Assembly: GCA_964503595.1 (NCBI GenBank) | Contig: CAZDAM010000002.1 | Span: forward strand, 9,335-73,334 | Origin: an uncultured bacterium | GTDB lineage: Bacteria > Muiribacteriota > UBA6191 | Direction of reading: 5' to 3' | DNA: 64,000 bases | Shown here: piece by piece, positions 2,731 through 38,260 of the stretch | How the letters are laid out: the number at the start of each line of letters is the position of its first letter | How positions within the stretch are numbered: the stretch's first letter is position 1 | Notes under the pieces: model-generated | Told to the model about the DNA's origin: nothing | Databases searched by the model: none | What the model saw: the letters and a program-made list of their open reading frames with translations, nothing else | Translations under genes and position numbers: made by a program

Positions 2731-3732
2731 TTGAAAACCATTTTCAAAATGTGCGCAGAAGTATTATTTCCAAATCTAGAAAAAGCCGATCGTCGCCTCC
2801 TGGAGCAGTTCATGGAACTCCTCACTCAAAGCGGCCACTCTCTGACTGAAACCCAGCTCACCATTGCCAAATCTCTTTTGAGACTGAAGCACCATACCGA
2901 GATTGCTCTGGCCCTTCAGGCAGTTGAGCAGAATACCCAGGCATCTCAGCAGGAAGTCGAAACCGTTCTTAAGATTCTGAAGGAATACGGAATTCTGGAA
3001 GTCAAATCTGTCGAAGGCCGCCAGACGATTGAACACAACCATCCGGATCGCAGACATTTTCATATGGTCTGCCTGAAAACCGGGCAGATCGAAGAATTCA
3101 CCTCAGAAATTCTGGAAGAAGTCCTGCATGAAACTGGTGCCCGCCACGGGTTTGTTCCGGTTTTCTCGGATATCGTCCTCTACGGGATCAAGGATGAAAT
3201 CATCCAGTCCGGACAAACCGGCTTCTCCCTGGTTCAGGCTGTCCAGAATCAGGGAGTTCAGATTCTGAGTTTTCCTGATGATGAACCTGAATTTCTTGAA
3301 AACGCAGCTAAAATCGGCCTTCAGGCCGGCTCTCATCTGGAAGTTCTGCATCAGGTGGAATCCACGGGAGAAATCCTTTGCCGCTTTCAGACTCACCGAC
3401 TGGTGATTCCGAAAAAAAAGGCCGAAAAAATCCTGATTCGGGCATTGAATGCCGAAGAAACCCGAACCCTTCGAACCTCTTTGAAGGAAGTGGAAAAAGT
3501 CTGGCCCAGCCTTGAAGATCTGAAAAACGGAGAAGAGGCCCGCATTGTCAGAATCCGTCCAGGCTCCCCCATTCAACGACGCCTGATGGAAATGGGGTTT
3601 GTTGCTGGAGCCAGCATCAAACGCTTAAGAATCGCTCCTTTGGGAGATCCGATTGAATTCAGCCTCAGGGGAGCTCATGTCAGCCTCAGACGAGTTGAAG
3701 CCCGCGATGTATTTGTGGAGCGCCAAGCATGA
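2731..3732 (+). CDS. feoA: FeoA-domain protein with ~250-aa N-terminal extension
   Basis: C-terminal ~75 aa (ARIVRIRPGSPIQRRLMEMGFVAGASIKRLRIAPLGDPIEFSLRGAHVSLRRVEARDVFV) match the FeoA SH3-like domain; stop overlaps feoB start (ATGA). Confidence 0.7.
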   Translation: MKTIFKMCAEVLFPNLEKADRRLLEQFMELLTQSGHSLTETQLTIAKSLLRLKHHTEIALALQAVEQNTQASQQEVETVLKILKEYGILEVKSVEGRQTIEHNHPDRRHFHMVCLKTGQIEEFTSEILEEVLHETGARHGFVPVFSDIVLYGIKDEIIQSGQTGFSLVQAVQNQGVQILSFPDDEPEFLENAAKIGLQAGSHLEVLHQVESTGEILCRFQTHRLVIPKKKAEKILIRALNAEETRTLRTSLKEVEKVWPSLEDLKNGEEARIVRIRPGSPIQRRLMEMGFVAGASIKRLRIAPLGDPIEFSLRGAHVSLRRVEARDVFVERQA

Positions 3733-7053: not shown

Positions 7054-9300
7054 TCACTCAACCTGTGAAGCGACCATACCATCCGGCAGAACCTTGAGGT
7101 GACAGACCACACCGTTCTCAGTTGGACTGACAAGCTTCTTTACCTGAAGCTTCTGTCCCTGAGGAACTTCAGCAAGCAGGTGAACCTGGGCCTCACCATC
7201 GGTATTCGTGCGCAGACGATGACGTTTGGGATCACGGCTCATTCCTTCCAGAATCCTTACTCCCCAGGGAACCTCGGAAAGATCCAGTTCAAACTGGACC
7301 AGAGTGTCGGAATACGGCACCCGATCCTGGTCAAGAAGGGTCAGGGTAATCGGAATCAGGGATTTATCATCCTGCAGACGATGGGCCACAAGCTCTGGAT
7401 AAGCCAGACCTCCCTGCACTCCCGCAACATAGTTCTCAAACTGCCCGGCCGGATGCATCAGTAACGGCATACCGGTTTCCCGTGGTCCGGAAGGCCGACT
7501 TTTGGGCTCAACCGGGCCGGGATATTCGCCCATATACTCAATCACCATTTCCTGGTGTTCCTGAAAATCTCTGGGCTGAAACGGAAACTGCACGGCCTCT
7601 TTGGTGACATGCACAGCGTGCATGGTTTCTCCATCTATTCCGGCATTCAGCTCTTCATGCTTACGGGGAACCGCGAGGCGACCCAGAAACTCTTTGGAAG
7701 AAACCGATTCCACAACGGGAGTTTTCTGGGTTTGATCCGGAACCCTGGAAGCTTTCAGCACAACTCCGGATTTCACGGGTTCGAGGGATTTCAGAAAGCC
7801 TTCAAATTCCTGCTTAGTCGGTTTATGGGTATCCAGGCGAATATCATTCAGCCATTTATTCATCCCAAGAATCGGTTTCAAGGCCCCTTTGGGCTCCATC
7901 ACGACCCGTTTCTTCTCCCGCGCTCTCTCCTGGTCATCGATCTGGGTCATAAGATGGGCAACGGTCTGGCGGGATTGAGCCGGATTCGGTTCATCCACCT
8001 TGGGATGCTGACGGATCGCCTGGACGTTTTCCACGTCCTTTTCACTCAGATCTTCCACATTCTGCAAAAACCTGCGGAAATCCTGATTCAAACGATCCTC
8101 ATCCCAGTCAGTTTCTCCATCCATTCCGGCATTCAGCTCTTCATGCTTGTGGGGAACCGCGAGGCGAACCAGAAACTCTTCGGAGGAAACCGATTCCACC
8201 ACGGGAGTTTTCAGGGTGCGGGCCGGAACCCTGGAAGCCTTCAGCACAATTTCGGATTTTATGGGTTCAAGCGATTTCAAAAAGCCTTCAAATTCCTGCT
8301 TAGCCGGTTTGTGGGCATCCAGGCGAATGTCATTCAGCCATTTGTTCATCCCAAAAATCGGTTTCAAAGCCCCTTTGGACTCCATCACAACCCGTGTCTT
8401 CTCCCGCACTCTCTCCTGATCATCGATCTGGGTCATAAGGTGGGCAAAAGTCTGGCGGGATTGAGCCAGATTCGGTTCATCCACCTTGGGATGCTGGCTG
8501 ATCACCCGGACGTTTTCCATGGCCTTTTCATTCAGACCCTCCACATTCTGCAAAAACCTTCGGAAATTCTGATCCGAACGATCCTCATTCCAGTCAAAGG
8601 TCGGATCCTTGGCCTGGGCTTTCACCAGCTGCTGGTGAAACTCATCCAGACTCTGACGTCCCAGAGTCGGAATCGTCTGGATTTCCGGCTTGTCCGTAGA
8701 TTTCAGGCTGGCATCCAGACTCTGCATAAAACCGGTGAACTGACCATCTTCACGAAGGGCGGCATCCCGAAGACCCAGAAGGTGTCCCCCCCGATCGATT
8801 GCCTGGGCAAGACTCTTCTGATCCTCTTCCAGGCGATAACGGGGATCTCCCGGATTGATGAATGTTGAAAAATGGGGCATGGCCCCCTCGCCCTCCATCG
8901 TCTCCAGAACCTGGGGAAGATGAATTTCCTTCACCAGAGAGGCATTCTGCTCCATGACCTTCAATCGATCATCAAGGGCAATCATGAATTCCTTGAGCTG
9001 GGGAACTTTGATGAAAGTCAGACGCAAACGCCTTAAATCCTGAAGACGGCTCTCCATGTCATCCAGACGAACCTTGAGTCTTTCCTTGACCCTGGCCTTG
9101 CGCATGGCCGTGGAAGAGGCATTCAGGACCTGATCCATTTCAAGGACTTCGGTATGAAGGCCCTCGACAATGCCTGTCATCTGGTTCAGAGTCGCCTTGA
9201 TCCGGTCATTTTCCTCAGGCGTGAAGACAGCCTTAGTCCATCCGAAAGACGAAAGTCCCCAGAAAATTCCAAAGCAAAGCAGCCGTTTGATCTGTTTCAT
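7054..9300 (-). CDS. Secreted 748-aa protein of unknown function with internal 162-aa tandem duplication
   Basis: Signal peptide MKQIKRLLCFGIFWGLSSFGWTKA; two consecutive ~162-aa repeats (NEDRSDQNFRRFLQNVEGL...AGMDGET and DEDRLNQDFRRFLQNVEDL...AGIDGET) at ~90% identity. Confidence 0.7.
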   Translation of the reverse strand: MKQIKRLLCFGIFWGLSSFGWTKAVFTPEENDRIKATLNQMTGIVEGLHTEVLEMDQVLNASSTAMRKARVKERLKVRLDDMESRLQDLRRLRLTFIKVPQLKEFMIALDDRLKVMEQNASLVKEIHLPQVLETMEGEGAMPHFSTFINPGDPRYRLEEDQKSLAQAIDRGGHLLGLRDAALREDGQFTGFMQSLDASLKSTDKPEIQTIPTLGRQSLDEFHQQLVKAQAKDPTFDWNEDRSDQNFRRFLQNVEGLNEKAMENVRVISQHPKVDEPNLAQSRQTFAHLMTQIDDQERVREKTRVVMESKGALKPIFGMNKWLNDIRLDAHKPAKQEFEGFLKSLEPIKSEIVLKASRVPARTLKTPVVESVSSEEFLVRLAVPHKHEELNAGMDGETDWDEDRLNQDFRRFLQNVEDLSEKDVENVQAIRQHPKVDEPNPAQSRQTVAHLMTQIDDQERAREKKRVVMEPKGALKPILGMNKWLNDIRLDTHKPTKQEFEGFLKSLEPVKSGVVLKASRVPDQTQKTPVVESVSSKEFLGRLAVPRKHEELNAGIDGETMHAVHVTKEAVQFPFQPRDFQEHQEMVIEYMGEYPGPVEPKSRPSGPRETGMPLLMHPAGQFENYVAGVQGGLAYPELVAHRLQDDKSLIPITLTLLDQDRVPYSDTLVQFELDLSEVPWGVRILEGMSRDPKRHRLRTNTDGEAQVHLLAEVPQGQKLQVKKLVSPTENGVVCHLKVLPDGMVASQVE
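7620..8595. repeat. Intragenic tandem direct repeat, 2 copies x 486 bp (~90% identical)
   Basis: The 7626-7634 region recurs at 8112-8120; the opposite-strand shadow ORF (7555..8868) shows the same duplication in its translation. Confidence 0.85.
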
Positions 9301-9336: not shown

Positions 9337-10635
9337 ATGACAATCACAGATATGAGCCTTTCTTCCCTTGATTCTCTGGCCTTAAAAAAGCTTCGCTCCG
9401 AAAAATCCTTCTATGAATCCGAGACCATGAAGGCCCTGGCCGGAATCAGTCCTGTTTTTCAGAATCTGCCGCCCCATATCCTGATCGGAGGAACCAATGG
9501 TAAAGGCAGCACCACCGCTCTGATGGAAGGAATTCTGATGGCATCCGGCCATCGGGTGGCCACTTTCATTACACCCCATCTTCTGCACCCAAGAGAAAGG
9601 ATCCGGATCCAGGGAGAAGATCTACCTTTCGGAATCTTTCATGAAGCTCTCAGGGATATGCAGGAGTCTGTCCCCAGACTGCTTCAGAAAGGCTTTAGAA
9701 GCCCGAGTTTCTTTGAAGGAATGCTTTACACACTAATCTGGGCAGCCCGCCATTTTGAATGCACGGCCATGGTTATTGAAGCAGGACTTGGAGGGCGAAG
9801 AGACGCAACAGCCTGTCTCTCACCCCAGGCAACCCTGATCACAAACATCAGCCTGGATCATGCTCATATTCTGGGAGAGACCCATGAGGCGATTGCCCAG
9901 GAAAAAGGGACCCTCTATACGATTGCCCAAAAAAAGTTCTATGGCGGAAAGGAAGATCCCAAAAACCTGTTTTCCGAAATCTCCGGCATTCAGATTCTGT
10001 CTGACTCCATTCCGATCACAATCGTTTCACAAGGGCTTGAGGGGCAGAGCGGACAGTTTGACTGGAATGGTCAGTCTCACCGGTTTCGTTGCCCGCTTCT
10101 TGGCTCATTTCAAAGAGAAAACCTTCAAAATGCCATTGCTCTTGCCTTTGAGATCAGAGAAAAATTTGGCATCACACCTCAAAGCGTGGTGCAGGGGATC
10201 CGCCAAATCCGCCATCCCTTCAGAATGGAGCTCTTAAGCAAAACTCCTCCTCTTCTCATCGACGGAGCCCATAATGCAGATGGCCTCAAGAAGCTTCTGG
10301 ACTCCATGAATGAGCTGCTCCCAAACCAAAAACCAGTCCTCTTCATGGGCCTAAAGAGAACAAAAAGCAATCAAAATCTTAGCTTTTTGTCCCATGGGTG
10401 GGACATTGAGGGAGTCTGTCTAAAAGGTGACAGCTTTTTGAGCCCCGCAGGACTGAAGAAACAGATTCCTCTGAGAAGAGTGCACTGCAGTCTGAAAAGC
10501 ACGCTGGAAGCCATGCACGAAACCCTCAAAATCAGGCCTGTTGTTCTTTGCGGGTCTCTTTATCTGGTTGCCCGCTTCACACGATTCTGGAAAAGAAAAA
10601 ACTCTGGCAACAAAAAAATACAGAAAAAAACATAA
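9337..10635 (+). CDS. folC: Folylpolyglutamate synthase / dihydrofolate synthase (Mur-ligase family)
   Basis: ILIGGTNGKGSTTA P-loop; Mur-ligase middle and C-terminal regions; start placed at ATG 9337 (MTITDMSL), after the convergent gene ends at 9300. The listed ORF start 9154 overlaps that gene. Confidence 0.8.
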   Translation: MTITDMSLSSLDSLALKKLRSEKSFYESETMKALAGISPVFQNLPPHILIGGTNGKGSTTALMEGILMASGHRVATFITPHLLHPRERIRIQGEDLPFGIFHEALRDMQESVPRLLQKGFRSPSFFEGMLYTLIWAARHFECTAMVIEAGLGGRRDATACLSPQATLITNISLDHAHILGETHEAIAQEKGTLYTIAQKKFYGGKEDPKNLFSEISGIQILSDSIPITIVSQGLEGQSGQFDWNGQSHRFRCPLLGSFQRENLQNAIALAFEIREKFGITPQSVVQGIRQIRHPFRMELLSKTPPLLIDGAHNADGLKKLLDSMNELLPNQKPVLFMGLKRTKSNQNLSFLSHGWDIEGVCLKGDSFLSPAGLKKQIPLRRVHCSLKSTLEAMHETLKIRPVVLCGSLYLVARFTRFWKRKNSGNKKIQKKT

Positions 10636-10692: not shown

Positions 10693-12975
10693 TTGGCTAT
10701 GGCAAACGATCTGGCATTATCCACTGGTCTTGTGTCCGGTATTGACTCTGGAGCGCTGGTTGAAGCTCTGACCATCCGGCAGCGGGAAACCATCAAGATT
10801 CAGGAAAGAAAACAGCATGAGCTGACTATTTCCAAGGAAGAATACCAAAGCATTCACTCGGCCCTGTCTTCACTCGAAGAAGCCGCTGTCAATGTATCTT
10901 TTGAATCCACCTTCTCCCGCAAAACCGCAAAAGTCGGCGATGAGGATCTTTTAGGGGCCACTGCCAACACTTCTGCTGAGGCTGCCAATTATCAGCTCAG
11001 TATCAGCCAGCTCGCGACCAGGCACCGGGTTGCCTCGGACATTCAATCCAGCATGACCTCCCCCCTTCTTTCTGAAGACGCTACCATCCAGCTCAACGGA
11101 GTCAGCCTCACGGTTTCTGCCGGGGCTAATCTGAATGATCTGAAAACCGGGATCAATAGCCTCAGAAGCCAGACGGGAGTTTCTGCCGAAATCATTGACA
11201 AACGTCTGATCCTGTCAAGCGTGGATACCGGTACAGAGAACTCCATGGAGATTATGGATGCTGATGGAGAGTTGCTTCAGAGCATCGGAATCCTGAATGA
11301 CCCCAGCAGCTCCGGTTTTGGAGAAGCCAATGCCAAAGGCCAGGCCCTCAGGTCCGTTACCATTGATGACTGGCGTTTTGCTCCCGGAACCTTCAATATC
11401 AACGGAGCCGAATTCACACTTGGAGGCGGAGAGACTTTCAATGATCTGGCCGATATGATCAACAATTCCGGCGTTGAAGGACTGACAGCAGAAGGAGTCG
11501 GAACCAGAATCCTTATTTACAGTGACGGACAGCCTCTTAACCTGCAGGATGTTGAAGGGAATACCACCCGAATCCTTCAGGATGTGCATTATGAGGAATC
11601 CGATTCTCTTGGCGCACTCAACCTGAATGGAAAATCCCTGTTCATAAATGGCCAGCAAATTGATTTCACTACCGAAACAACAGCCGAAGAAGTCATGGAC
11701 CGGATCAATGCCAAAGGCATTTCCGGAGTCAAGGCCACAGTCGCTCCTGACTCCAGCCGTCTGAGGATTTACTCGGAACCCAACATCAACCTCAATATCT
11801 CCGGGACCGCTGCCGCTGATTTTGGTGCCTTCACCTCAAGAATACCTTCCGATCCTTCCTTTCAGTGGGATTATTTCAATGATGTGGATGAAACCATCAA
11901 CATCAACGGGGAAGACGTGGTCATTCCCGCCTACAGCAGCATGACCCAGATCTACAGTGCCATCAATGCAGTTTCCGGTGACTCCGGTGTGACGGCCTCC
12001 ATTGTCGATGGCACCGAATTGAACTTCAATTCCTCCGACACCATTGTCATCGGTGATGTTTCCGGAAGTTTTGCCGAAAGAACAGGTCTTCTTTCCAGTT
12101 CCTTCAAAAATGAGTTAAAAACCCCACAGGATGCTATTTTCACCATCAATGGAGTTCAGGCTACACGCTCCTCCAACATCATCACCGATGTGGTTGAAAA
12201 CCTGACTCTGGAACTCAAATCTACCGGAAGCAGCACCCTGAATATCCAGAACGATTCCGATACTGCTCGTACTGCGATTGAAAACTTCATTGAGCGCTAC
12301 AACGCCGCAATTGAACTGATTGATGAAAAAGTCCGGGCAAAAAAAGACTACAACCTCAAATATCTGGCCGAAGAAGAAAGAGAAAATCTGGATGCCGAAG
12401 CCCTTGCCGAAAAAGAGGACGAACTCAGAAAACAGGTTCTGGCAGGAGACCCCCTGCTTCAGAGAGCCTACAACACTTTGAGGCAGTTCTCTTATATGCG
12501 GGTTGAAGGCCCAGATGGCATTAATTCTCTTTCCAAAATGGGAATCTCCACCGGCGCTATCGGCTCCAATCCAGCTGAAACACGGATCGGAAAACTTCAG
12601 ATTGCAGATGAATCCAAGTTCAAGGCTGCTCTGGAAAACAATCTGGATCAGGTGAAAACCTTCTTTACCCGAACCGATGAAAACAACCCCAAGGGACAGG
12701 GAATTGGCGAACGTCTGAAAGTTGAAATCCGCCGCTTTACATCTTTCAGCGGCCTTTTGACCCAAAAAGCCGGAAGACCCGGCCAGGCTGTTTCAAACAG
12801 TCTGATTGATAAAGAAATTGCGGGTCTTACTCTAGATATCTTGAACAAGAACCGCTCTCTGCTAAAATATCAGGAAAGCTTATTGCTCACATTTCAGAAC
12901 ATGGAGTCTTCCTTGCAGACGTTGCAGAATCAATCCAACGCCATTGCCCAGGCAGGATCCACTGGCGGTTTCTAA
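10693..12975 (+). CDS. fliD: Flagellar filament cap protein FliD (hook-associated protein 2)
   Basis: N-terminus LSTGLVSGIDSGALVEALTIRQRETIKIQERKQ and C-terminal coiled coil LLTFQNMESSLQTLQNQSNAIAQAG are characteristic of FliD; 760 aa. Confidence 0.85.
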   Translation: MAMANDLALSTGLVSGIDSGALVEALTIRQRETIKIQERKQHELTISKEEYQSIHSALSSLEEAAVNVSFESTFSRKTAKVGDEDLLGATANTSAEAANYQLSISQLATRHRVASDIQSSMTSPLLSEDATIQLNGVSLTVSAGANLNDLKTGINSLRSQTGVSAEIIDKRLILSSVDTGTENSMEIMDADGELLQSIGILNDPSSSGFGEANAKGQALRSVTIDDWRFAPGTFNINGAEFTLGGGETFNDLADMINNSGVEGLTAEGVGTRILIYSDGQPLNLQDVEGNTTRILQDVHYEESDSLGALNLNGKSLFINGQQIDFTTETTAEEVMDRINAKGISGVKATVAPDSSRLRIYSEPNINLNISGTAAADFGAFTSRIPSDPSFQWDYFNDVDETININGEDVVIPAYSSMTQIYSAINAVSGDSGVTASIVDGTELNFNSSDTIVIGDVSGSFAERTGLLSSSFKNELKTPQDAIFTINGVQATRSSNIITDVVENLTLELKSTGSSTLNIQNDSDTARTAIENFIERYNAAIELIDEKVRAKKDYNLKYLAEEERENLDAEALAEKEDELRKQVLAGDPLLQRAYNTLRQFSYMRVEGPDGINSLSKMGISTGAIGSNPAETRIGKLQIADESKFKAALENNLDQVKTFFTRTDENNPKGQGIGERLKVEIRRFTSFSGLLTQKAGRPGQAVSNSLIDKEIAGLTLDILNKNRSLLKYQESLLLTFQNMESSLQTLQNQSNAIAQAGSTGGF

Positions 12976-12978
12976 TTC

Positions 12979-13596
12979 ATGCAGATACATCTCAATGGGA
13001 AACAGGTCGAAGTTGAAACTCAGGAACTACAGGGTTTTGGCCAGTTGATTCAAAAAATTGAAAAACAGATTCTGGAGCCAGGCGGCAGTGTCATTACCGC
13101 CCTGCACTTAAATGGTCGTGAACTGGATGCTCAGGGAGAAGCCGATTATTCCACCTTTCCTCTGGATCGGGTAGAATCTCTTGAGATTCGGGCCAGCAAT
13201 AAACAGGAATTGGCTCTACAAGCCCTTGGCGATGCCGTTCACATTCTTCCCGAACTCTCTTCCGTTGTGGATGAATGTCTGAAAAAGTTTGACGAGCTGT
13301 CCGAAAACGCCGGCATGCAGATTTTTGTCACGGTTGCGGATGGCCTCAGCTGGCTTTCCACCGTTTCTCAAGGAGCCGAAGTCATCTTTCATCCGAAGAT
13401 TCAGAATTCCGGCATGGAAAACTCTGCTTTTCTGGTCGCAAGCCGAAAGCTGCAGAATATTGCCCGCGAACTTCTGAATGCCCAGCAGCAGAGCGACTAC
13501 ACCACATTTCGGGATTTGTTGGAATATGAATTAAAACCGACCCTGAATGAAATTGCCGAAGGTATCCCTGAATTTTGCCAAAGCGTTCAGGCCTGA
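12979..13596 (+). CDS. Hypothetical protein in the flagellar locus (205 aa)
   Basis: ORF tightly packed between fliD and the maf-like gene; no recognisable motif. Confidence 0.45.
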   Translation: MQIHLNGKQVEVETQELQGFGQLIQKIEKQILEPGGSVITALHLNGRELDAQGEADYSTFPLDRVESLEIRASNKQELALQALGDAVHILPELSSVVDECLKKFDELSENAGMQIFVTVADGLSWLSTVSQGAEVIFHPKIQNSGMENSAFLVASRKLQNIARELLNAQQQSDYTTFRDLLEYELKPTLNEIAEGIPEFCQSVQA

Positions 13597-13608
13597 TAAT
13601 CTGATTCC

Positions 13609-15528
13609 ATGTCCGATCCCTATCTGTTTCTGAAGGAAGTTGCCCCTCCACTTTACCAGACTCTGGTCTTTCGGGCTGATAAAGAAGAACTTCTGGATGC
13701 GGTTGAAGGCTTTATCAGCAAGGAAGGCAAAACCAATCTGCGCTTTATCCTGGGTGGACGGAATCTTACAGTTCATTCTTCCTACAATCCGGAAAAAGAA
13801 GCCGAAAAAATCCTGAGCCGCTATGAAAACAACCCCCATAAGCTCACTGTTTGTCTGGGGGTCGGAATCGGTTACCACGTCGATGCCTTTCTGAAGGCCT
13901 ACCCGGATCGTCAACTCGTGATCCTGGAGCCAAGCTATAAAACTCTCCGACAGGCCATGAAACTGCGGGACTTCGAAACCTATTTCAGAAACCCCCGAAT
14001 CACCTTTATCATCACCCCGAATCCTGATGAACTCGCTGACTTTCTGGCTTCCCAGTACAACTTCAACCAGCATTCAGGGGTCCAGTTCATCGAGCCTCCG
14101 GTTTATGCCCGCTGGTTCAATGATGTCTTCAATGCCGTCAAAAAAAGGTTTCTGGAGCATCTGGCCAAGTTCACCGCCAATATGGCCACAATCATGGAAG
14201 CGGATGATGATTTCATCATCAACTGCGTGAACAACGTAAAACACCTGGGGAAATTCCCCTGGGCTGCCCAGCTTTTTGGTCGTTTCCCCGGCATTCCCGC
14301 CATCATTATCAGTGCCGGCCCCTCCCTTCACCTTCATCTGGAAAAACTCAGGGAACTCAAAAACAAGGCCTTTCTGATTGCCGTCGATACGGCTTATCCG
14401 ATTCTTTTGAAAAACGGAATCAATCCCCATTTCGTCTGCACAGCCGATCCCAATGATGTCAATTTCATGCATCTCAAGGGTCTTGATGTCAGCAAAACCT
14501 TTCTGGTTGTTGAGCCCATGACCTGGCATGAAACCCTTGATATGGAGGGAGCGCGGGCTTTTATCTGCAACTTCAATGGATATTATTCCTCGTATTTTTC
14601 CAAATTCTCAGCCTTCCCCAAGCCTCTTCTATCCTGGGGTTCGATTGCAACAACCTGCTTTGATCTGGCCCGCCAGATGGACTGTGGCCCAATTATCTTC
14701 GTGGGTCAGGATCTGGCCTATTCCGACATGCTCACCCACTGCCCAGGTTCCCGCTACGATGAACAGTATTACGCCCAGGTCGAAGCCTGCCCGAATCTTG
14801 AGCTTTATACTTCCTATGAAACATTTCACCTGCAAAGAATCCTGGCAAGACCAGTTGTCAGCCACTTGGACATCCATGGCAATCAGGTTTTGACCCAGAA
14901 CAATCTGATTCTCTATGCCCAGTGGCTGGAAGAACAGTTTTCCAAAACCCGACAGCCAGTGATCAATGCCACAGAACGAGGGATCTTGAGGAAAAACTGC
15001 CGTCAGATGAGCTTTGACAAGGTCTGTCGGGATTATCTGACTCAGGACAGGAATCTGAGTGACGCACTGGAAGTCATCTACAATGAGCCCCGTCGCTTTC
15101 TCTTTCCTGAGCTTCTTGCCGATGTCAGCCGGAAAATCGAAAGTCTGGGCAATGCCGAGGCCCTGGCCACATCCCGCAAGGAGGACAGCAAAGCACTGCT
15201 TGATGCCGCAAAAAACAATTCCGAAAAGGAAATGCGGCAGATGTTCAATGAGCTTTCCAAAGGCATCCATTGCGGGATTGAAGACCCCGTTCTTCTGGGA
15301 TGGCTCGAGCACAAAAACCAGAAAGCCGAAGTTTATTTCCAGCGTTCTTTGGGGAAGCTTGTCGGAGCCCGGTTCAGTCAGGATCTGATCGTGAAAATGG
15401 CTGAACTCTACACCGGATACTACGGTTCTCGACTCAAGTCCTTCCAGGAATTGCAGCATTTTCTGAAAATAGCCGCCAAAGGATGTCAGGAGGGTCTGGA
15501 GATCCAGCCCCTTGATGTCTTAGAATAA
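13609..15528 (+). CDS. Motility-accessory-factor (Maf)-like protein with central DUF115/MptE-like domain (putative flagellin glycosylation factor)
   Basis: 639 aa; central region IIISAGPSLHLHLEKL...AFLIAVDTAYPILLKNGINPHFVCTADP matches the DUF115 fold of Campylobacter/Helicobacter Maf proteins; size and position between fliD and fliS fit. Confidence 0.6.
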   Translation: MSDPYLFLKEVAPPLYQTLVFRADKEELLDAVEGFISKEGKTNLRFILGGRNLTVHSSYNPEKEAEKILSRYENNPHKLTVCLGVGIGYHVDAFLKAYPDRQLVILEPSYKTLRQAMKLRDFETYFRNPRITFIITPNPDELADFLASQYNFNQHSGVQFIEPPVYARWFNDVFNAVKKRFLEHLAKFTANMATIMEADDDFIINCVNNVKHLGKFPWAAQLFGRFPGIPAIIISAGPSLHLHLEKLRELKNKAFLIAVDTAYPILLKNGINPHFVCTADPNDVNFMHLKGLDVSKTFLVVEPMTWHETLDMEGARAFICNFNGYYSSYFSKFSAFPKPLLSWGSIATTCFDLARQMDCGPIIFVGQDLAYSDMLTHCPGSRYDEQYYAQVEACPNLELYTSYETFHLQRILARPVVSHLDIHGNQVLTQNNLILYAQWLEEQFSKTRQPVINATERGILRKNCRQMSFDKVCRDYLTQDRNLSDALEVIYNEPRRFLFPELLADVSRKIESLGNAEALATSRKEDSKALLDAAKNNSEKEMRQMFNELSKGIHCGIEDPVLLGWLEHKNQKAEVYFQRSLGKLVGARFSQDLIVKMAELYTGYYGSRLKSFQELQHFLKIAAKGCQEGLEIQPLDVLE

Positions 15529-15549
15529 CAGAGTAGAAGGGAGAAGCCT

Positions 15550-16185
15550 ATGGCTCTTGCGTACCAGAATCAGCAGCTTGGACAATACAAGCGTATGAAG
15601 ATTGAAACGGCCACGCCGGAGATGCTCATTCTCATGCTCTATGACGGGGCTGTGAAGAACATCACTCTGGCCCGTGAAATCATGGGGGATCGATCTAAAA
15701 TCGATCAGTGCAGTAACCATTTTATCAAGGCTCAGAACATCATCACAGAATTGATGGTTTCCCTGAATTTTGAAATCGGGGGCGAAATTGCCCGCAACCT
15801 TTTCAACATCTACGAATTCATCAACTACACCTTGGCCCAGGCCAATATCACCAAATCCGAAGAAAATCTGGATACCGTGATCACCATGCTCAAGGATCTC
15901 AAGGGCACCTGGCAGGAAGTCATCCGTATCAATCGCGAACGCTACCCGGCCGGTCTTCCATCCGCAGAAGAGATTGCCGCCCGCGAGGGTCGTCCCAGCC
16001 CGGATCCTCAAGGTGGAGTCAATCCTCTGGCCCGTACGGAAAATATGGATGTTGCGGCCAGTGAGGCCGAAGAACCGATACCTGCTCCCGAGCCGGAGAA
16101 GTCCGTAACTTCCAGTACCCGACCCCAGCCTGGCCAGCAGAACCGTTTCAAACAGATTTACGGCAAAGTTCTGTCCCGCAAGTAA
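15550..16185 (+). CDS. fliS: Flagellar export chaperone FliS with Pro/Glu-rich C-terminal extension
   Basis: MALAYQNQQLGQYKRMKIETATPEMLILMLYDGAVKNI matches the FliS N-terminus; four-helix-bundle length plus ~70-aa low-complexity tail. Confidence 0.85.
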   Translation: MALAYQNQQLGQYKRMKIETATPEMLILMLYDGAVKNITLAREIMGDRSKIDQCSNHFIKAQNIITELMVSLNFEIGGEIARNLFNIYEFINYTLAQANITKSEENLDTVITMLKDLKGTWQEVIRINRERYPAGLPSAEEIAAREGRPSPDPQGGVNPLARTENMDVAASEAEEPIPAPEPEKSVTSSTRPQPGQQNRFKQIYGKVLSRK

Positions 16186-16189
16186 TTTC

Positions 16190-16690
16190 ATGCCTAAACA
16201 GCCCGCCAACCTCCTCATTGAGGACATGCAGCCCTGGCATGTGGAAGATGTTCTCAAACTTGAGGCCTTAATTCCTCAGCATGGTGATACTTCCCGCATG
16301 CAAAAGCAAAGAGAAGATCTGATCCGCGCCTTCCTGCGCTACCGCGATCTGGGACAGGCAGTTTGCCGGGTTCTGGAAGCCGATGAAGAAAAGGTCATTG
16401 GCTACTATATTCTTCTGACTCATCCCGCGCGGGTGGCCTCCTTCTGGAAAAAATCCCTTCAGGCAAGTCAGGGCATGGCCTATCTGGCCCAGATTGCCAT
16501 GGATGAGGAATTCCAGCAGATGGGTCTTGGGAAAATCCTTCTTAGGAATGCCGAGGAAAGTTCCCGAAACATGGGTTTGAACGAAATGATTCTGGAAGTC
16601 ATGAGTGGCTCTGATGCTCATACCTGGTACCAGCACCATGCCTACGAAGAAATTGGAGCCCAGATCTATCTGAAGAAAGCCCTGGCATGA
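16190..16690 (+). CDS. GNAT-family N-acetyltransferase (PseH-like position in the flagellar locus)
   Basis: 166 aa; motif A-like QIAMDEEFQQMGLGKILLRNAEE; immediately follows fliS. Confidence 0.7.
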   Translation: MPKQPANLLIEDMQPWHVEDVLKLEALIPQHGDTSRMQKQREDLIRAFLRYRDLGQAVCRVLEADEEKVIGYYILLTHPARVASFWKKSLQASQGMAYLAQIAMDEEFQQMGLGKILLRNAEESSRNMGLNEMILEVMSGSDAHTWYQHHAYEEIGAQIYLKKALA

Positions 16691-18237
16691 ACCCCGTTTT
16701 CATCCGGCAGGTCCTGATCTGCCTGATGCTCTGCCTCTGGACTCCTTTTGGGGAAGCTTCCCCTCTGAAGATCATTCCCTTGGGAGTGCTGGTTGCCCTT
16801 CTTCCCCTGCATCTGAAACCCCCGGAAAAACTGGTCTTTTGTGGATTTGCCCTGCTCCCCTTCGCGGTTCCTTCCCTGGAGCAGCGCTTCTATTTTGCCG
16901 AAGCCTGGCTGATTCTGGCAGCCTTTGCTGGCCGCTATATGAGAAGGGAAGAACTTTCATCCCCCCTGATTCTCTTTGTCTTCGCCAATTTTCTGTTTGT
17001 CCTGTTCAGCAGGCTGGGCTGGCTCCCTTTCCGATGGTTTCAGGCTCATGTGGAATGGAATGAGCCGTCCTTGATTCTGGCCAGCTCTCACCCTGGCCTC
17101 ACAGACTCCCCCTTAAGCCTGTGTCTGCCCCTGATTCTGGGCTGGATCGTAATTCCTCAAAACCCCAGACATCGTCTGGTCTATGGACTCCCGGGGCTCT
17201 TTCTCTGCCTTCAGTCCGGCTCCCGAATCGGTGTTCTTCTCTTTCTTCTGGCCTTTCTTCAGCATGCCTTCCCCAAAATTTCCCCCAAAACAATCCTGCT
17301 GGGACTATGCGCCCTGATTGGGTTGATGTTTCTCACTCTGGATGCCCACTACACCAAGCGCCCCTTAAAAACCCGCCTCATGATCTGGGAGGCCGCCACA
17401 AAAGAACTCAGCCTGCTCGGGCATGGACCTGCCTGGTTTCAAAAGAACAGTGGTCGTCTCATGCCTCCTGATACCGAATGCCAAAAACTCAGCCGGATCC
17501 AGTTTCATCCACACAACGATCTTCTCCACTGGCTTCTGGCTTTTGGATTGCCCGGTCTTGGACTCCGCATCTTCTTCTATTTTCTGGTTTTCAAAACCGT
17601 TCGATCCCATCCCCAAAGCTTTCCCCTGCTCCTCGCTCTGATCGGAGCCCAACTCAATCCCGATCTTCTGACCTCTCCCGGAGTTCCGCTCTTTGGCCTT
17701 TTATGGGGAAGTTTTCACTCCGGATCTGAAACCGGAAAGTCCTCCTGGCTTGCAATCGCCGGGGGGTTCATCCTCATTGTCCTGGCCCTTCTTCAGTGGC
17801 AGACTTCGATTCAGTCCCAGAGCATCCTCAAGGGCCAGTCTGTTCAGCTGAACCCCTGGTTTCAAAGTCCAAGCCTGCTTCTCAATCATGCCTCCTCGCT
17901 GGCACAAAGAGGAAAATTCGCCCAGGCTCTGGAAGAGCTGGAACAACTGGAAAGACACGCCCCGCATTATGCCAACCTGGATTATCTCAAGGCAGGCTGC
18001 CAGATGTACCTAGGACAGCAGGAACAGACTCTTCATTCCTTGCGTGAATCTCTGGAGTTCAATCCCTGTCATCTACAATCCATGCGGGCTTTGGCCGATA
18101 TTCTTCGGAGAAACCATGAAGAAGAAGAGGCTTTGCTCTGGGAAAACAAGGCAACATCTCTGTCCAAGGGAATCATTGAAAATGAGGAAATCTACCAGCC
18201 TGATTCTACTGATGGGACTATGTCTCCCAATCCATAG
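16687..18237 (+). CDS. Polytopic membrane protein, O-antigen-ligase (Wzy_C)-like, with C-terminal TPR repeats
   Basis: ~10-12 predicted TM helices with a large loop, C-terminal ~110 aa TPR-like (AQRGKFAQALEELEQLERHAPHYANLDYLKAGCQMYLGQ...); the Wzy_C assignment is a judgement from topology and composition, not a motif match. Confidence 0.4.
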   Translation: MNPVFIRQVLICLMLCLWTPFGEASPLKIIPLGVLVALLPLHLKPPEKLVFCGFALLPFAVPSLEQRFYFAEAWLILAAFAGRYMRREELSSPLILFVFANFLFVLFSRLGWLPFRWFQAHVEWNEPSLILASSHPGLTDSPLSLCLPLILGWIVIPQNPRHRLVYGLPGLFLCLQSGSRIGVLLFLLAFLQHAFPKISPKTILLGLCALIGLMFLTLDAHYTKRPLKTRLMIWEAATKELSLLGHGPAWFQKNSGRLMPPDTECQKLSRIQFHPHNDLLHWLLAFGLPGLGLRIFFYFLVFKTVRSHPQSFPLLLALIGAQLNPDLLTSPGVPLFGLLWGSFHSGSETGKSSWLAIAGGFILIVLALLQWQTSIQSQSILKGQSVQLNPWFQSPSLLLNHASSLAQRGKFAQALEELEQLERHAPHYANLDYLKAGCQMYLGQQEQTLHSLRESLEFNPCHLQSMRALADILRRNHEEEEALLWENKATSLSKGIIENEEIYQPDSTDGTMSPNP

Positions 18238-18964
18238 CTATGAACCGCCAGCCTATCCTGAGCTGGCCCTGGCCAAACGGCAGTTTCAGGAAGGTCGCTA
18301 TGAAGACACCGTCATAGAGCTTCTGAAAACCAAAAAGCGCAAGACATCCGATGAACTTCTGTTCCTGCTTGCCAAAGCTATGGAGAGGCTTGAAAGTCCC
18401 TCTCTTGAGGCCGTATACTGGCAGGAACTCCTCTCCCAGTTTCCGGAATCCCCTTATGTACCAAGTGCCCGCGTGCGCCTGAAAAACCTGGTCGAACTTT
18501 ATCTGAGCGAGGACTTTCTGGAACTTACCGTTGACGTAGAGACTTCATTGGAACAGGGAATCCAGGAAGGAAAAAACCGCGAGCATGACGCCGCAATTCT
18601 CTGGCTTTTGAAAAGCCTGAGCCTGAAGCCGGACTCTTCCTCAGCCCATTTCTGGCTGGGCTGGAACTATCACCACCTTTACCAGTTCCGACCTTCTCAG
18701 ACAGGCTACCGGGAGCTGGCCATGATTCATTACCGACGTTCCTCCTCCATTATTCCTTCCTCAAGATCTCTGAACAACCTGGCTTGCCTCTTGGCTCAGG
18801 CAGAAGATCCGATTATGGCCCGGTACTATTTTGACAAGGCCCTGGAAGTGGCAGCAACACCGGGTATCCGGGAAGCCGTGGCTGCCAACCGAAACAGTTT
18901 TGCCTCACGCACCAATGCTTTACGCTACCAGCTTCTGCAGGAAGATGAAGATCTGAATCCATGA
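18182..18964 (+). CDS. TPR-repeat lipoprotein/secreted protein
   Basis: Start chosen at ATG 18182 (MRKSTSLILLMGLCLPIHS signal peptide); TPR-like helices (AKRQFQEGRYEDTVIELL...); stop overlaps the next ORF. Confidence 0.5.
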   Translation: MRKSTSLILLMGLCLPIHSYEPPAYPELALAKRQFQEGRYEDTVIELLKTKKRKTSDELLFLLAKAMERLESPSLEAVYWQELLSQFPESPYVPSARVRLKNLVELYLSEDFLELTVDVETSLEQGIQEGKNREHDAAILWLLKSLSLKPDSSSAHFWLGWNYHHLYQFRPSQTGYRELAMIHYRRSSSIIPSSRSLNNLACLLAQAEDPIMARYYFDKALEVAATPGIREAVAANRNSFASRTNALRYQLLQEDEDLNP

Positions 18965-19941
18965 AGTTCTTGCTCTGTCTTCTGCTGTCTTTGTCCTGGC
19001 TTCAGGCTGAAGTCTCTCCCTACCGGGATCCAAATTATCAGGCCTGGCTGGACTCCCATGACGGCACAGAAAATCCCTTTCGCTACAACCTCGCTGCCTT
19101 TTCCGGCAATCGGGTTGAAAATCGCCAGAACCCACACACGCTGGCCTCACCTCACGAGCGACCCGTACCTTCTTCCTTTGCCGGTAATTTCCGCCTTGAA
19201 ATCGCCCCGGTGGATGTCAGAGGCCTGAATCAGCCTCTTCTCGTACCGGCGGCAGGCTCTTCTCGTGGATTTGAGCCCCGAGGGCAGGAGATCAAGATTT
19301 CCAAGCGCTTTTCCCGACCTGAAGATCGGCTGGATTTTCGTCTGGAAGCCACCATGATGAATGCCAGTGACAGCTTCAGCCTTCAGGGAGGAGCCACGAT
19401 CCGGGATGGGAGGGTTCTTAACAACCCTCAGGGGAATCTTGACTTTGACCAACAGAATCTGCGCTTGGAATGGGCCTGGCACCCAACCGAAAACCTCCAG
19501 TCCCGCCTTGGCACCCTGGCTGGCTTCAGTTTAAGGCGGATGAATGCCGACAGCCATATCGCCGATACCCTGCAGTTCGCAGACTGGAAGCTCAGCCAGT
19601 GGGGAATCATTCCCTATGTCGGCCTGGAAGGAGAAACCCCTCTGTCCCGCTCGGTCCATCTGTATGGCCGGGCCCGCCTGGGCTACGCCTTCACCAAATC
19701 CGAAGTTCGCCGCGATACGGGTCAGGCACCGGCAACAACCCAGACCATCCGGCGCAAAAGGGATTTTATCGAATCCGATATCTCAGCCGGATTTGCCTGG
19801 TTCTGGGATCGAACCCATCGCCTCAGTGCAGGCTGGCAGTACAGCCACGCTGACTTTCCCAACCTTGACGGCCCTACCGGAATTCCTCTCGAAGAACTCT
19901 CCTGGTCAGGCCCTCAGATAAGGCTCGACTTCCTGTTTTAG
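18961..19941 (+). CDS. Outer-membrane beta-barrel protein (hypothetical)
   Basis: Signal peptide MKFLLCLLLSLSWLQA; alternating amphipathic strands; C-terminal ...RLDFLF with terminal Phe typical of OMPs. Confidence 0.5.
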   Translation: MKFLLCLLLSLSWLQAEVSPYRDPNYQAWLDSHDGTENPFRYNLAAFSGNRVENRQNPHTLASPHERPVPSSFAGNFRLEIAPVDVRGLNQPLLVPAAGSSRGFEPRGQEIKISKRFSRPEDRLDFRLEATMMNASDSFSLQGGATIRDGRVLNNPQGNLDFDQQNLRLEWAWHPTENLQSRLGTLAGFSLRRMNADSHIADTLQFADWKLSQWGIIPYVGLEGETPLSRSVHLYGRARLGYAFTKSEVRRDTGQAPATTQTIRRKRDFIESDISAGFAWFWDRTHRLSAGWQYSHADFPNLDGPTGIPLEELSWSGPQIRLDFLF

Positions 19942-19975: not shown

Positions 19976-21292
19976 ATGAATCGCATGATTGACAATCGCA
20001 AGCACAAAGCCCGGGCTATTCTGGTTGGAGTTCTTTTGAAAGACGACTCCATGGGCGAGCTGCAAAAAGATCTGGAAGAGCTGAGGAGGCTTCTGGACAC
20101 CCTTGGTGTAGAAGCTCACGCCACCATGATTCAAAGCCGCGAGACTATTGATTCGCGCACGTTCATCGGCTCCGGCAAGGTCGAGGAAATTAGAAATCGC
20201 CTGGGTCCGGAAGAGATCAGCGTAGTTGTCTTTGATGATGAACTTTCCCCTTCCCAGATGCGAAGCCTGGAACAGGATCTGAAGATTGAGGTTCTGGATC
20301 GCACCGGTGTGATTCTGAGAATTTTCAGCCAGAATGCCCGTACCTATGAATCCAAGCTTCAGATTGAACTGGCCGGACTGGAGTATGCCCTTCCCCGCCT
20401 GAAGCGTCAGTGGACTCACCTTTCCCGTCAGAGGGGGGGACGAGGATTTTTATCCGGAGAGGGAGAAACCCAGCTTGAAGCGGACCGCCGGGCAATTCGT
20501 ACCAGTATCCAGCAGACCAAGGCCAAACTGGAAAAGATTCAGTCACAGAGGGATTCCCAGAAAAAGAACCGCCGTCACTTTTTCAAGGTTGCCATTGCCG
20601 GTTACACCAACTCCGGGAAATCAACCCTGCTCAATGCCCTCACCCAATCCGAGGTTCTGGTGGAGGACAAGCTTTTTGCCACGCTGGATCCATCAACCAG
20701 AATCATCAAACCAGATGAAAAACCGGCTATTCTGTTCTCTGATACAGTGGGCTTTATCAAGAAACTGCCCCATGCCCTTGTGGCTTCCTTTCGCTCCACA
20801 TTTGAGGAAATCCGCGATGCCGATCTGATTCTTCATGTCGTGGACTGTTCCGATCCTGATTATACTCATAGAATCCATGATACCGTGAAGGTTCTGAAAG
20901 AACTGGATCTGGATTCCATTCCTCGCCTGATGGTCTTCAATAAAATCGATCGCATGAAGCGTCAGCCGATCAAGCTCAAGATGATCAAATCTGTACATTC
21001 CCAAGCTGCCTTTGTTTCTGCAATCAAAAGCGAAGGTCTGGAAGATCTGAAAAACAAGATCTACGCCAGCTTCAAGCGCCATATGCGGGAAATGCAGATT
21101 GAAGTCAGTTTTGGATGTGAGTCCATTCTGGAAAAAATCTATGAATGGGCCCGTGTCCTGCAAACCGAATACACCGAAGATTCCATTTCCATTCATTTCA
21201 GGGGAGCCCGCCGGGATCTTGAGCCGGTCCTCGATCAGCTCCGGCGGAATGGTTATCTTCTTACGGAAAAATCTTTGCAGGTAAGTTTATGA
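19976..21292 (+). CDS. hflX: GTPase HflX
   Basis: HflX N-domain, GYTNSGKSTLLNALT G1 motif, DTVGF G3, NKID G4; 438 aa. Confidence 0.9.
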   Translation: MNRMIDNRKHKARAILVGVLLKDDSMGELQKDLEELRRLLDTLGVEAHATMIQSRETIDSRTFIGSGKVEEIRNRLGPEEISVVVFDDELSPSQMRSLEQDLKIEVLDRTGVILRIFSQNARTYESKLQIELAGLEYALPRLKRQWTHLSRQRGGRGFLSGEGETQLEADRRAIRTSIQQTKAKLEKIQSQRDSQKKNRRHFFKVAIAGYTNSGKSTLLNALTQSEVLVEDKLFATLDPSTRIIKPDEKPAILFSDTVGFIKKLPHALVASFRSTFEEIRDADLILHVVDCSDPDYTHRIHDTVKVLKELDLDSIPRLMVFNKIDRMKRQPIKLKMIKSVHSQAAFVSAIKSEGLEDLKNKIYASFKRHMREMQIEVSFGCESILEKIYEWARVLQTEYTEDSISIHFRGARRDLEPVLDQLRRNGYLLTEKSLQVSL

Positions 21293-21800: not shown

Positions 21801-22361
21801 TTAAATGTATTCCTGAAACAGTTCCGGCCTGGGGCTTGCAATCACTGTTCGGGCAACAACCATACCACGCTCACTGGCAGCTTCACAGGCAACATCGATC
21901 GAAGCCTTCACACTGGACAGATCGCCGGTAATCAGGAGAAAGCCCTTGCCGCCGACAGCCATGGCCAGGTGAACCCGAAAAACCTGCCCATCCGAAGTTT
22001 TGGCTGCAGCATCCGCCGCTTCCACAATGGATGCCACGGAAAAGGTCTCGAGAATTCCCAAGGCCCCGACCTGTTCCGGTTCGAGATGAATCGAGCCTCC
22101 AATGGCACGGAATACATCCGGATGAAGATTGGGAATAATGAGCTCTTCAATCAGAACCCCCCGAGCTGCTGCTGCTCCGGCCTGAACCGCAGCCTCAACT
22201 TCTGAGACCTGTCCTCCAACCACTACCATATATTTCCCCGAACAGATGGAACGGGCCACCATCAGTTCAACATCGGCCGCCTTGAGCATGGAGTCCTGAG
22301 CAGCGTAGCCAATCGCAATGGATGAGAGTTCGATCATTCCAATGGCATCATGATTCTTCAT
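21801..22361 (-). CDS. pduT: Bacterial microcompartment shell protein, tandem-BMC-domain PduT-like (Fe-S pore type)
   Basis: 186 aa; near-colinear with Salmonella PduT as recalled: AIGMIELSSIAIGYAAQDSMLKAADVELMVARSICSGKYMVVVGG vs [45 protein letters not shown], including the pore Cys; second BMC repeat present. Confidence 0.85.
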   Translation of the reverse strand: MKNHDAIGMIELSSIAIGYAAQDSMLKAADVELMVARSICSGKYMVVVGGQVSEVEAAVQAGAAAARGVLIEELIIPNLHPDVFRAIGGSIHLEPEQVGALGILETFSVASIVEAADAAAKTSDGQVFRVHLAMAVGGKGFLLITGDLSSVKASIDVACEAASERGMVVARTVIASPRPELFQEYI

Positions 22362-37020: not shown

Positions 37021-37090
37021 GTGCAGAGGTCTTCTACAGGAACCGCAGAATATAACAAAAACAGCCAAAAACGGACAGTTTTGAATGAAA

Positions 37091-38095: not shown

Positions 38096-38260
38096 TATAC
38101 ATCAAAACCACGAATATCGCGGCAATCCAACTGTCACTGACTTCATCACCTTCGGGAAGGCGCCACTTATGAATGCGTTCAATCATAATCAATTCACAGT
38201 AACTGACAATCTCTGAAATGAAAAAAGCCGGGCTAAGAGCCCGGCCAGAACCTCTGGAAA

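Follow-up and report, generated by a model that had tools for sequence, protein, structure and literature searches.

Gene content and synteny

We analyzed a 64,000-nucleotide stretch of DNA, here called the window, from contig CAZDAM010000002.1 of an uncultured bacterium, in which a set of flagellar filament genes runs directly into genes for a WaaL-like membrane protein with a tetratricopeptide repeat (TPR) tail, a secreted TPR protein and a probable outer-membrane protein (OMP). This run occupies positions 10693-19941, as given in the initial annotation of the DNA, and is co-directional on the plus strand and tightly packed. It belongs to a longer series of plus-strand genes that continues without a break from 9.3 to 21.3 kb, from a folC-like gene through hflX. 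Gene identities were assigned by Pfam and NCBIfam profile searches of the window proteins. The first plus-strand gene (9337-10635) is predicted to encode a folC-like folylpolyglutamate/dihydrofolate synthase (TIGR01499 folC, 221 bits against a cutoff of 162.65). It is followed by fliD (10693-12975), which encodes the flagellar filament cap (FliD_N 58 bits, Flagellin_IN 62 bits, FliD_C 131 bits) and likely starts at the ATG at 10699, and by a gene for a TP0873_N/DUF8042 protein of 205 amino acids (aa) (12979-13596; precomputed matches to PF27299 and PF26154). Next are the motility accessory factor gene maf (13609-15528; MptE-like/DUF115 PF01973, 135.2 bits against a gathering score of 34.6, and Maf_flag10_N PF20157, 36.2 bits against 23.5), the flagellin export chaperone gene fliS (15550-16185; PF02561 125 bits, TIGR00208 82 bits with a cutoff of 53.75) and a gene for a 166-aa RimI-like GNAT acetyltransferase (16190-16690; Acetyltransf_1 40.6 bits). 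The remaining genes encode the 516-aa membrane protein of the WaaL/Wzy_C superfamily (16687-18237), a 250-aa secreted TPR protein with weak TPR matches (18212-18964), a 326-aa probable outer-membrane beta-barrel protein (18961-19941) and the GTPase HflX (19976-21292; TIGR03156, 427 bits). The initial annotation had listed fliD, maf, fliS and the GNAT, membrane protein, TPR protein and OMP genes as one co-directional set, and both the profile matches and the coordinates bear this out. It had omitted one gene, that of the 205-aa protein between fliD and maf, and had placed both maf and the GNAT gene between fliD and fliS; maf does lie there, but the GNAT gene follows fliS.

From fliD to the gene for the 326-aa protein, the intergenic spacings are +3, +12, +21, +4, -4, -26 and -4 nucleotides, with +34 nucleotides from there to hflX. 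The stop codon of the GNAT gene and the start codon of the 516-aa gene overlap as ATGA at 16687-16690, which is seen directly in the sequence. These overlapping codons make it plausible that the 516-aa gene is co-transcribed with fliS in the lineage of the window. Promoter and terminator scans from 9 to 22 kb gave results at the level of shuffled sequence and are uninformative on transcription units.

A word-indexed homology search with the 516-aa protein returned only the query's own sequence. When 1.84 billion representatives were searched exhaustively with HMMER, nine relatives matched over the full length, with E-values from <1e-30 to 1e-11 and identities of about 24-31%; the remaining matches were to the TPR tail alone. 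We compared the contigs encoding these relatives, together with six genome loci, by tblastn with all window proteins; among the loci named below, L013 is UBA6191, L014 is BROCD023, and L016 (from NORP72), L017 (from a JGI metagenome) and L018 (from GY13CL_bin.7) are contigs that carry close Maf homologues. Two gene sets emerged. Module A consists of folC, fliD, the gene for the TP0873-like protein, maf, fliS and the GNAT gene, and module B consists of the genes for the WaaL-like protein with its TPR tail, the TPR protein and the OMP, usually followed by hflX. The order of the three module B genes is kept in L002-L004 and L007-L015, and L005 and L006 are short contigs that carry only the first one or two of them. 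Module B is conserved in at least nine lineages, and in each relative locus the gene after the WaaL-like one encodes an orthologue of the TPR protein. The hflX gene, the usual right neighbour and a marker of where module B lay ancestrally, adjoins the OMP gene in L003, L007, L010, L011 and L013; in L012 and L015 its orientation is inverted.

In six of these lineages the upstream context of module B is not flagellar. A divergent gene for a 646-aa protein, to which no family could be assigned, lies upstream of module B in L003, L006, L007, L011, L012 and L015, and fliS is upstream in none of the six. Beyond it are genes for an MshE-like MshEN/T2SSE ATPase and an SLH-domain protein in L003 (3336-9963), L007 (3-6438), L011 (3-5343), L012 (3346-9525) and L015 (3764-9742), and the short contig L006 shows the 646-aa gene only. 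Among these ancestral-context loci the SLH protein is 57-95% identical and the ATPase 76-91%, whereas identity of the 646-aa protein is only 27-56%. In most relatives a fluoride channel gene, crcB, sits between the TPR and OMP genes (L003 12330-12677, L007 8972-9349, L010-L012 and L015); it is missing from that position in the window, L013 and L014. In L003 both the ORF (open reading frame) finder and the precomputed gene call fuse crcB and the OMP gene into a 472-aa product.

Module A also occurs by itself. In L016, L017 and L018 it ends at the GNAT gene and is followed not by module B but by unrelated genes: in some cases TP_methylase and ftsY, both encoded on the opposite strand, in others a gene of the DUF2807 type. 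In two of these genomes the modules lie on separate contigs: NVVD01000001.1 (module A) and NVVD01000023.1 (module B) in NORP72, and JAGSHD010000010.1 (module A) and JAGSHD010000004.1 (module B) in GY13CL_bin.7. Since the modules are found apart in relatives, the GNAT gene is to be grouped with fliS, whereas the genes for the membrane protein, the TPR protein and the OMP form a group of their own. The two modules are contiguous only in the window, L013 and L014. Thus, the window shows a junction of modules A and B that arose in a single sub-lineage and falls precisely where the GNAT gene ends, and we consider it highly probable that the cluster is a composite of two independently conserved modules brought side by side in that lineage.

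Comparison with L013 showed that divergence differs from gene to gene. Identity is higher for FliD (55%), Maf (57%), FliS (63%) and HflX (66%) and lower for the GNAT protein (30%), the WaaL-like protein (31%), the TPR protein (38%) and the OMP (28%). The contrast between 28-38% identity for the products of window positions 16190-19941 against L013 5884-9563 and 55-66% for FliD, Maf, FliS and HflX indicates that the envelope and acetyltransferase genes evolve much faster.

The WaaL-like membrane protein and its exported partners

In the 516-aa protein, Wzy_C (PF04932) matched residues 171-292 with an E-value of 5e-7 and a score of 30.0 bits, just below the gathering score of 31.7. At E<=0.01 the same profile matched 6 of the 10 family members (best E 4.7e-10). 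The PglL_A motif (PF15864) was found in none of the ten members at this threshold. TPR matches cover residues 399-492, and the C-terminal TPR domain spans approximately residues 395-502, or about 110 residues.

Alignment of the family revealed an invariant core, S-R270-x-Q-F-H274-P-H276-N-D-L-L ... G287 .. G290, preceded by G245-x-G247. The invariant residues are R270, H274, P275, N277, D278, G287 and G290. This core contains an HX10G motif formed by H276-x10-G287, in which H276 is present in 9 of the 10 members and G287 in all of them, and which is associated with a loop of about 60 residues (218-278) after the ninth hydrophobic segment. Alignment-averaged hydropathy gave 13 hydrophobic segments: nine before this loop, three after it and one more (354-373) ahead of the TPR domain. 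As in WaaL, the three segments after the loop are set apart by a loop that is short and conserved (Q-x-x-P-D...P). Short loops rich in K and R lie on the predicted cytoplasmic side, giving a weak positive-inside signal. In Pseudomonas aeruginosa WaaL, which has 12 transmembrane segments, the essential H303 of HX10G lies in a large periplasmic loop between segments 9 and 10 (PMC2932511).

An AlphaFold2 model of the 516-aa protein made from the 10-sequence alignment had a pLDDT of 77.4 and a pTM of 0.78. In a Foldseek search its top match, and its sole match outside the TPR domain, was the ligase WaaL (7tpg_B; E 5.7e-4, probability 1.0, TM-scores 0.37/0.46). A search of the PDB with a profile of the membrane domain found no sequence at E<=10, and the same search with the full-length family profile was swamped by TPR matches. 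The relationship to WaaL is therefore remote, since the membrane-domain profile finds no PDB entry. We conclude that the 516-aa protein genuinely belongs to the WaaL/Wzy_C superfamily, as a divergent member whose active site is predicted to face the periplasm.

The protein shares with WaaL of Cupriavidus metallidurans (7TPG) and P. aeruginosa the fold match, the Wzy_C signature, the HX10G histidine in a big loop after transmembrane segment 9, and the three transmembrane segments after the loop with their short conserved periplasmic loop. It differs from them in having one added transmembrane helix and a TPR domain of about 110 residues, in its location outside lipopolysaccharide (LPS) genes, and in its restriction to a very small clade. 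WaaL in the strict sense has 12 transmembrane segments and no extra domains, and the 13th segment and the TPR domain place the 516-aa protein outside this definition. From the segment count, a periplasmic location of the TPR domain, brought about by the extra 13th helix, is most likely. The description of this protein as an O-antigen-ligase type with about 12 transmembrane segments and a periplasmic TPR tail is thus accurate for the WaaL-like fold and the TPR tail, and needs correction for the number of hydrophobic segments, which is 13 and not 12.

The 250-aa TPR protein has an N-terminal signal peptide in all sequences (11 of 11). It had been described as a lipoprotein; its lipidation is doubtful as judged from the signal sequence, where the cysteine of the window protein lies within an atypical box, LMGLC, and 4 of 10 orthologues lack this cysteine. 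It is best called an exported TPR protein.

The 326-aa protein is probably an outer-membrane beta-barrel. This assignment, made without qualification in the initial annotation, is based on a signal peptide, a C-terminus (...GPQIRLDFLF) whose final F is found in 9 of 9 orthologues within the pattern ...LxF[LH]F, weak matches in 2 of 10 orthologues to the major OMP family Legionella_OMP (PF05150), and alternating-hydrophobicity stretches (amphipathic, beta-like) that stand about 2 standard deviations above shuffled controls. The window protein itself had no Pfam, family-level NCBIfam or PDB match, and a search of the PDB with the OMP profile found nothing. A word-indexed search returned only a near-duplicate (93% identical), and an AlphaFold2 model from a 2-sequence alignment had a pLDDT of 28.7 and no usable fold. 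We also considered N-glycosylation sequons in an OMP loop; D-x-N-x-S/T-like strings occur in some orthologues and are not conserved, and this candidate was rejected.

Candidate roles of the two modules

The product of 13609-15528 matches the solved Magnetospirillum Maf structure (5mu5_A, E 3.3e-6) in addition to PF01973 and PF20157, and by these matches it is a Maf protein, a predicted cytoplasmic flagellin glycosyltransferase. The presence of a Maf-type enzyme inside a fliD-fliS operon, as originally proposed, is thereby confirmed. It also matches the flagellin modification protein PseD domain (NF050051) at 99 bits, below the cutoff of 670. A search for homologues gave 3290 sequences, in a family that includes proteins annotated as motility-associated-factor glycosyltransferases, and the closest named homologues are from Candidatus Cloacimonadota (38-40% identity), followed by Riflebacteria/Ozemobacteraceae. 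Like the Maf proteins of Magnetospirillum magneticum (5MU5), Aeromonas caviae (Maf1) and Shewanella (Maf-1 and Maf-2), the window protein combines the MptE-like/DUF115 catalytic domain with a Maf N-terminal domain, is about 640 aa in size with a long C-terminal extension, and is encoded in a flagellar filament locus beside fliS. The window differs from these systems in several ways. No pse, leg or neu genes for nonulosonic-acid biosynthesis were found among the approximately 50 ORFs scanned in the 64-kb window, the part of the genome covered by our search for the pse and leg genes that had been suggested as a check; the only other glycosyltransferase among these ORFs is a GT2 enzyme at 42664-43506. 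A conserved RimI-like GNAT gene follows fliS, the Maf score is below the NCBIfam PseD cutoff, and the partner encoded in cis is the 205-aa TP0873_N/DUF8042 protein, as against the 89-residue four-helix GlfM for Maf-2.

Orthologues of the 205-aa protein are always encoded between fliD and maf (L013 2608-3228, L016 9354-9971, L017 9390-10004, L018 9354-9968). Local Pfam, NCBIfam and PDB searches with it gave no match. Its N-terminal part of about 70 residues gives the impression, from sequence, of a small beta-grasp-type domain. We considered that it might be a counterpart of the Maf specificity factor GlfM and dropped this idea because GlfM, an 89-residue four-helix bundle resembling FliS and FliT, has no detectable similarity to the 205-aa protein, which is in another Pfam family. 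The Pfam name TP0873_N points to the Treponema pallidum gene TP0873, on which a literature search found nothing.

The GNAT gene directly follows fliS in five loci (L013, L014, L016, L017 and L018), and this constant position suggests that the enzyme is a conserved accessory with a putative flagellum-related substrate. The proposal that it is PseH-like was rejected. The highest-scoring NCBIfam model was rimI, whose 39 bits fall short of the 86.4-bit cutoff, alongside other weak GNAT matches, and no PseH model was among its matches at E<=0.01 in NCBIfam, which we take to include one. Its nearest relatives in the PDB are uncharacterised acetyltransferases.

Module A would thus be an operon of the late flagellar class that carries its own system for modification in the cytoplasm. 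In it, Maf would O-glycosylate flagellin in the cytoplasm from a nucleotide-activated sugar, and export assisted by FliS would follow; this mechanism is established for the Maf family and is inferred here by analogy. Glycosylation by Maf is described as cytoplasmic and as preceding chaperone binding and export (PMC4065374), and a review classes flagellar O-glycosylation as cytoplasmic and independent of oligosaccharyltransferases (PMC12871550). If so, the window would provide a Maf-type flagellin modification operon from the poorly known flagellated Cloacimonadota, with two conserved and unexplained partners, the TP0873_N/DUF8042 protein and the RimI-like GNAT after fliS.

The relatives also bear on the host. 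In a scan of one genome per species, six loci encoded relatives of the 516-aa protein: three from Candidatus Cloacimonadota, one from bacterium UBP17_UBA6191, which NCBI places under unclassified candidate phyla, and two from uncultured bacteria. The window proteins HflX and Maf are 66% and 57% identical to those of UBA6191. A pangenome study describes the Cloacimonadota as Gram-negative bacteria that carry genes for Kdo2-lipid A and have type IV pili, and reports LPS genes in 46 of 46 genomes and flagellar genes in only 5 of the 46, NORP72 among them (bioRxiv 10.1101/2021.10.08.463351). Together, these sequence relationships indicate that the host is a diderm, Cloacimonadota/UBP17-like bacterium and not a spirochete, and nothing in the sequence points to periplasmic flagella. 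The premise of a spirochete with periplasmic flagella, on which the initial annotation had made its proposal conditional, therefore does not hold, as the named relatives are metagenome-assembled genomes of Candidatus Cloacimonadota or UBP17.

On that premise the WaaL-like protein had been proposed as a periplasm-facing O-oligosaccharyltransferase for flagellin or a sheath protein, forming one functional cluster with Maf and GNAT. This proposal is consistent with the contiguity of the 516-aa gene with the end of the fliD-maf-fliS-GNAT operon, and its overlap with the last gene there, in the window, L013 and L014, with the predicted periplasmic position of the catalytic loop and a TPR domain suited to protein binding, and with the presence of flagellar genes in every genome known to carry the 516-aa family. 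We nevertheless give it very little credence. The host is Cloacimonadota-like, and in bacteria with external flagella flagellin leaves the cytoplasm through the type III channel, so that it never meets the periplasm. Nonulosonic acids are the kind of sugar that the cytoplasmic Maf route attaches. An O-glycan of nonulosonic-acid type has been found even on the core flagellins of Treponema denticola (PMC13439194). In at least six other lineages, module B has a different upstream context and no linkage to fliS, in two genomes the modules are on separate contigs, and no sheath gene (FlaA-like) was seen in the window. Conservation of module B independently of flagellar genes thus argues against the proposal, and module B is very probably not a flagellin or sheath glycosylase.

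The predicted co-transcription of module B with fliS in the sub-lineage of the window keeps alive a small probability of a flagellar role. In the window, UBA6191 and BROCD023, the rearrangement may have put a periplasm-facing transferase of the WaaL fold under late-flagellar control, where it would glycosylate a periplasm-exposed envelope protein associated with the flagellum, for instance the neighbouring OMP or part of a ring or sheath. We regard this as very improbable, and if true, it would give a flagellum with two glycosylation routes, a cytoplasmic one through Maf and a periplasmic one through an O-oligosaccharyltransferase.

We instead favour, by a modest degree, the reading that an ordinary cytoplasmic Maf operon lies beside an independent envelope module that transfers glycan to protein. 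Module B would then be a unit of the envelope and not of the filament. The 516-aa enzyme would sit in the inner membrane with its HX10G loop facing the periplasm, take a glycan from a lipid carrier (undecaprenyl diphosphate) on that side of the membrane and pass it on to an acceptor. In the manner of an O-oligosaccharyltransferase, the acceptor may be an envelope protein, possibly the adjacent OMP or an SLH protein.

That the acceptor is a protein rather than lipid A-core is a tentative part of this reading, held by analogy at slightly less than even probability. It is favoured because a predicted periplasmic TPR domain, reached via the 13th helix, and a neighbouring exported TPR protein make up the architecture of known Wzy_C O-oligosaccharyltransferases, and because genes for such enzymes frequently adjoin those of their targets, as described in the paper that defined the PglL_A motif (PMC3643930), and no LPS genes are nearby. 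Both WsfB and PglL carry a C-terminal TPR domain, and the TPR protein WsaA is encoded beside WsaB (PMC2943079). Module B has both features, combining the Wzy_C and C-terminal TPR arrangement of Paenibacillus alvei WsfB and Neisseria PglL with the small adjacent TPR protein of the Geobacillus stearothermophilus WsaA and WsaB pair. An SLH-domain protein is encoded three genes upstream in the ancestral context of module B, and the glycosylated S-layer protein of P. alvei also carries SLH domains. Module B differs from these systems in its lack of a PF15864 match, of adjacent slg or pgl glycan-assembly genes and of an adjacent pilin or identified target, and in its diderm host. Another likeness is to TfpW, the P. 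aeruginosa pilin arabinosyl- or oligosaccharyl-transferase, which has a periplasmic TPR domain, and to the eukaryotic TMTC1-4 proteins. All are polytopic membrane glycosyltransferases with a periplasmic or luminal C-terminal TPR domain that is thought to engage the protein substrate. They differ from the 516-aa protein in belonging to the GT-C/ArnT-PMT lineage and not to Wzy_C, and tfpW lies beside pilA, whereas no pilin gene was found in any locus, the neighbours in module B being the TPR protein gene, crcB, the OMP gene and hflX. As a further precedent, the WaaL of Aggregatibacter actinomycetemcomitans is postulated to glycosylate the adhesin EmaA.

The enzyme of module B could alternatively be a genuine WaaL that ligates an O-antigen or oligosaccharide linked to undecaprenyl diphosphate to lipid A-core, with the TPR proteins and the OMP as mere neighbours or aids in LPS handling. 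Several features agree with this: the WaaL ligase 7TPG gives the best structural match and the sole one beyond the TPR domain, the HX10G motif and its loop are placed as in WaaL, and the PglL_A motif is missing, as does the Kdo2-lipid A pathway encoded by Cloacimonadota (bioRxiv 10.1101/2021.10.08.463351). We consider a lipid A-core ligase unlikely. The family comprises about nine representative clusters among 1.8 billion proteins, whereas LPS genes are reported for each of the 46 Cloacimonadota genomes analysed; none of the loci has a glycosyltransferase gene for core or O-antigen beside module B; and canonical WaaL has 12 transmembrane segments without TPR, in contrast to the 13th helix, the TPR domain and the dedicated exported TPR partner found here, all three strictly conserved.

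It is also conceivable that module B is a device for polysaccharide polymerisation and export, in which a Wzy-type polymerase would hand its product via periplasmic TPR scaffolds to an outer-membrane porin, as compared with AlgK/AlgE, PgaA, BcsC and PelB. The conserved triad of Wzy_C-family membrane protein, exported TPR protein and probable beta-barrel OMP fits such an arrangement, and in NCBIfam the TPR tail weakly resembled PgaA and PrsT, and the OMP weakly resembled EpsL. TPR motifs count as a recognised hallmark of polysaccharide export scaffolds (a work cited in PMC2943079). The PgaA, PrsT and EpsL matches are, however, far below the cutoffs (16-22 bits against 275-1043), and no synthase, glycosyltransferase, flippase, Wza or Wzc gene was found in any locus. 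Known TPR and porin exporters pair with synthase-dependent pathways and not with Wzy_C enzymes. Moreover, the OMP is a predicted barrel with no Pfam or PDB family match, and crcB splits the TPR-OMP gene pair in most relatives. An export device is accordingly quite improbable, and both it and the WaaL ligase are weaker explanations than a protein acceptor.

Several observations weigh against the reading that we favour, with its independent envelope module and protein acceptor. The PglL_A motif is absent from the whole family, the sole structural match outside the TPR domain is to an LPS ligase, and no glycan-assembly gene, flippase or obvious target was found in any locus. The periplasmic position of the TPR tail is predicted from the count of hydrophobic segments and the weak positive-inside signal. 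The presence of crcB between the TPR and OMP genes means that adjacency in the module B operon is no strict guide to shared function. In the window itself, the ATGA overlap and the lack of any standout terminator-like site suggest that module B is probably transcribed with the flagellar genes, and this predicted shared transcription could reflect a functional link acquired in the lineage of the window. Finally, all genomes known to carry module B come from one small group that is flagellated, and patterns of co-occurrence therefore cannot tell the two modules apart.

If an independent envelope module is the right explanation, there is no need at this locus to invoke an O-oligosaccharyltransferase that acts on flagellin in the periplasm, and the adjacency of the two modules would reflect a recent rearrangement and not a shared pathway. 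Cloacimonadota belong to the FCB group, of which the Bacteroidota are also members. The triad of WaaL-fold protein with TPR tail, TPR protein and OMP, which is very small in extent and restricted to one clade, would be a candidate system for O-glycosylation of envelope proteins in that group. According to a 2025 review, the general O-oligosaccharyltransferase of the Bacteroidota is still undiscovered (PMC12871550).

Other genes of the window

To the left of module A, on the minus strand and divergent from the folC-like gene, which keeps its position in L016-L018, lies a gene for a 748-aa protein with no Pfam match (7054-9300), a conserved left neighbour of module A. Its homologues in L016, L017 and L018 are 579-590 aa long, 37-42% identical and in the same divergent position upstream of folC. 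The window protein is lengthened by a 486-bp tandem duplication (2.0 copies, 89% identical) at 7625-8596. Further left, window positions 2731-6125 encode a 333-aa protein in which a Fur-like domain is fused to FeoA domains, followed by feoB. Because feoA flanks module A in GY13CL_bin.7 (L018) also, the left-hand synteny of module A reaches this region.

Immediately downstream of hflX, on the opposite strand (21801-23663), a microcompartment shell protein with tandem BMC domains is encoded beside an RnfC/PduS-like flavin and Fe-S protein. Further flagellar genes, fliW and fliG, are dispersed in the window (27009-27533, 34025-35044, 35056-37167), and a 703-aa ORF directly upstream of fliG, in the position expected of fliF, had no Pfam match at E<=1e-5. 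The regions at 50972-53776 (plus strand) and 37091-39970 (minus strand) include a gene for an unusual 934-aa protein in which HEAT repeats are fused to a secretion ATPase of the T2SSE type. Two more HEAT-repeat proteins are encoded in the same regions, one of them fused to a phosphoribosyltransferase domain.

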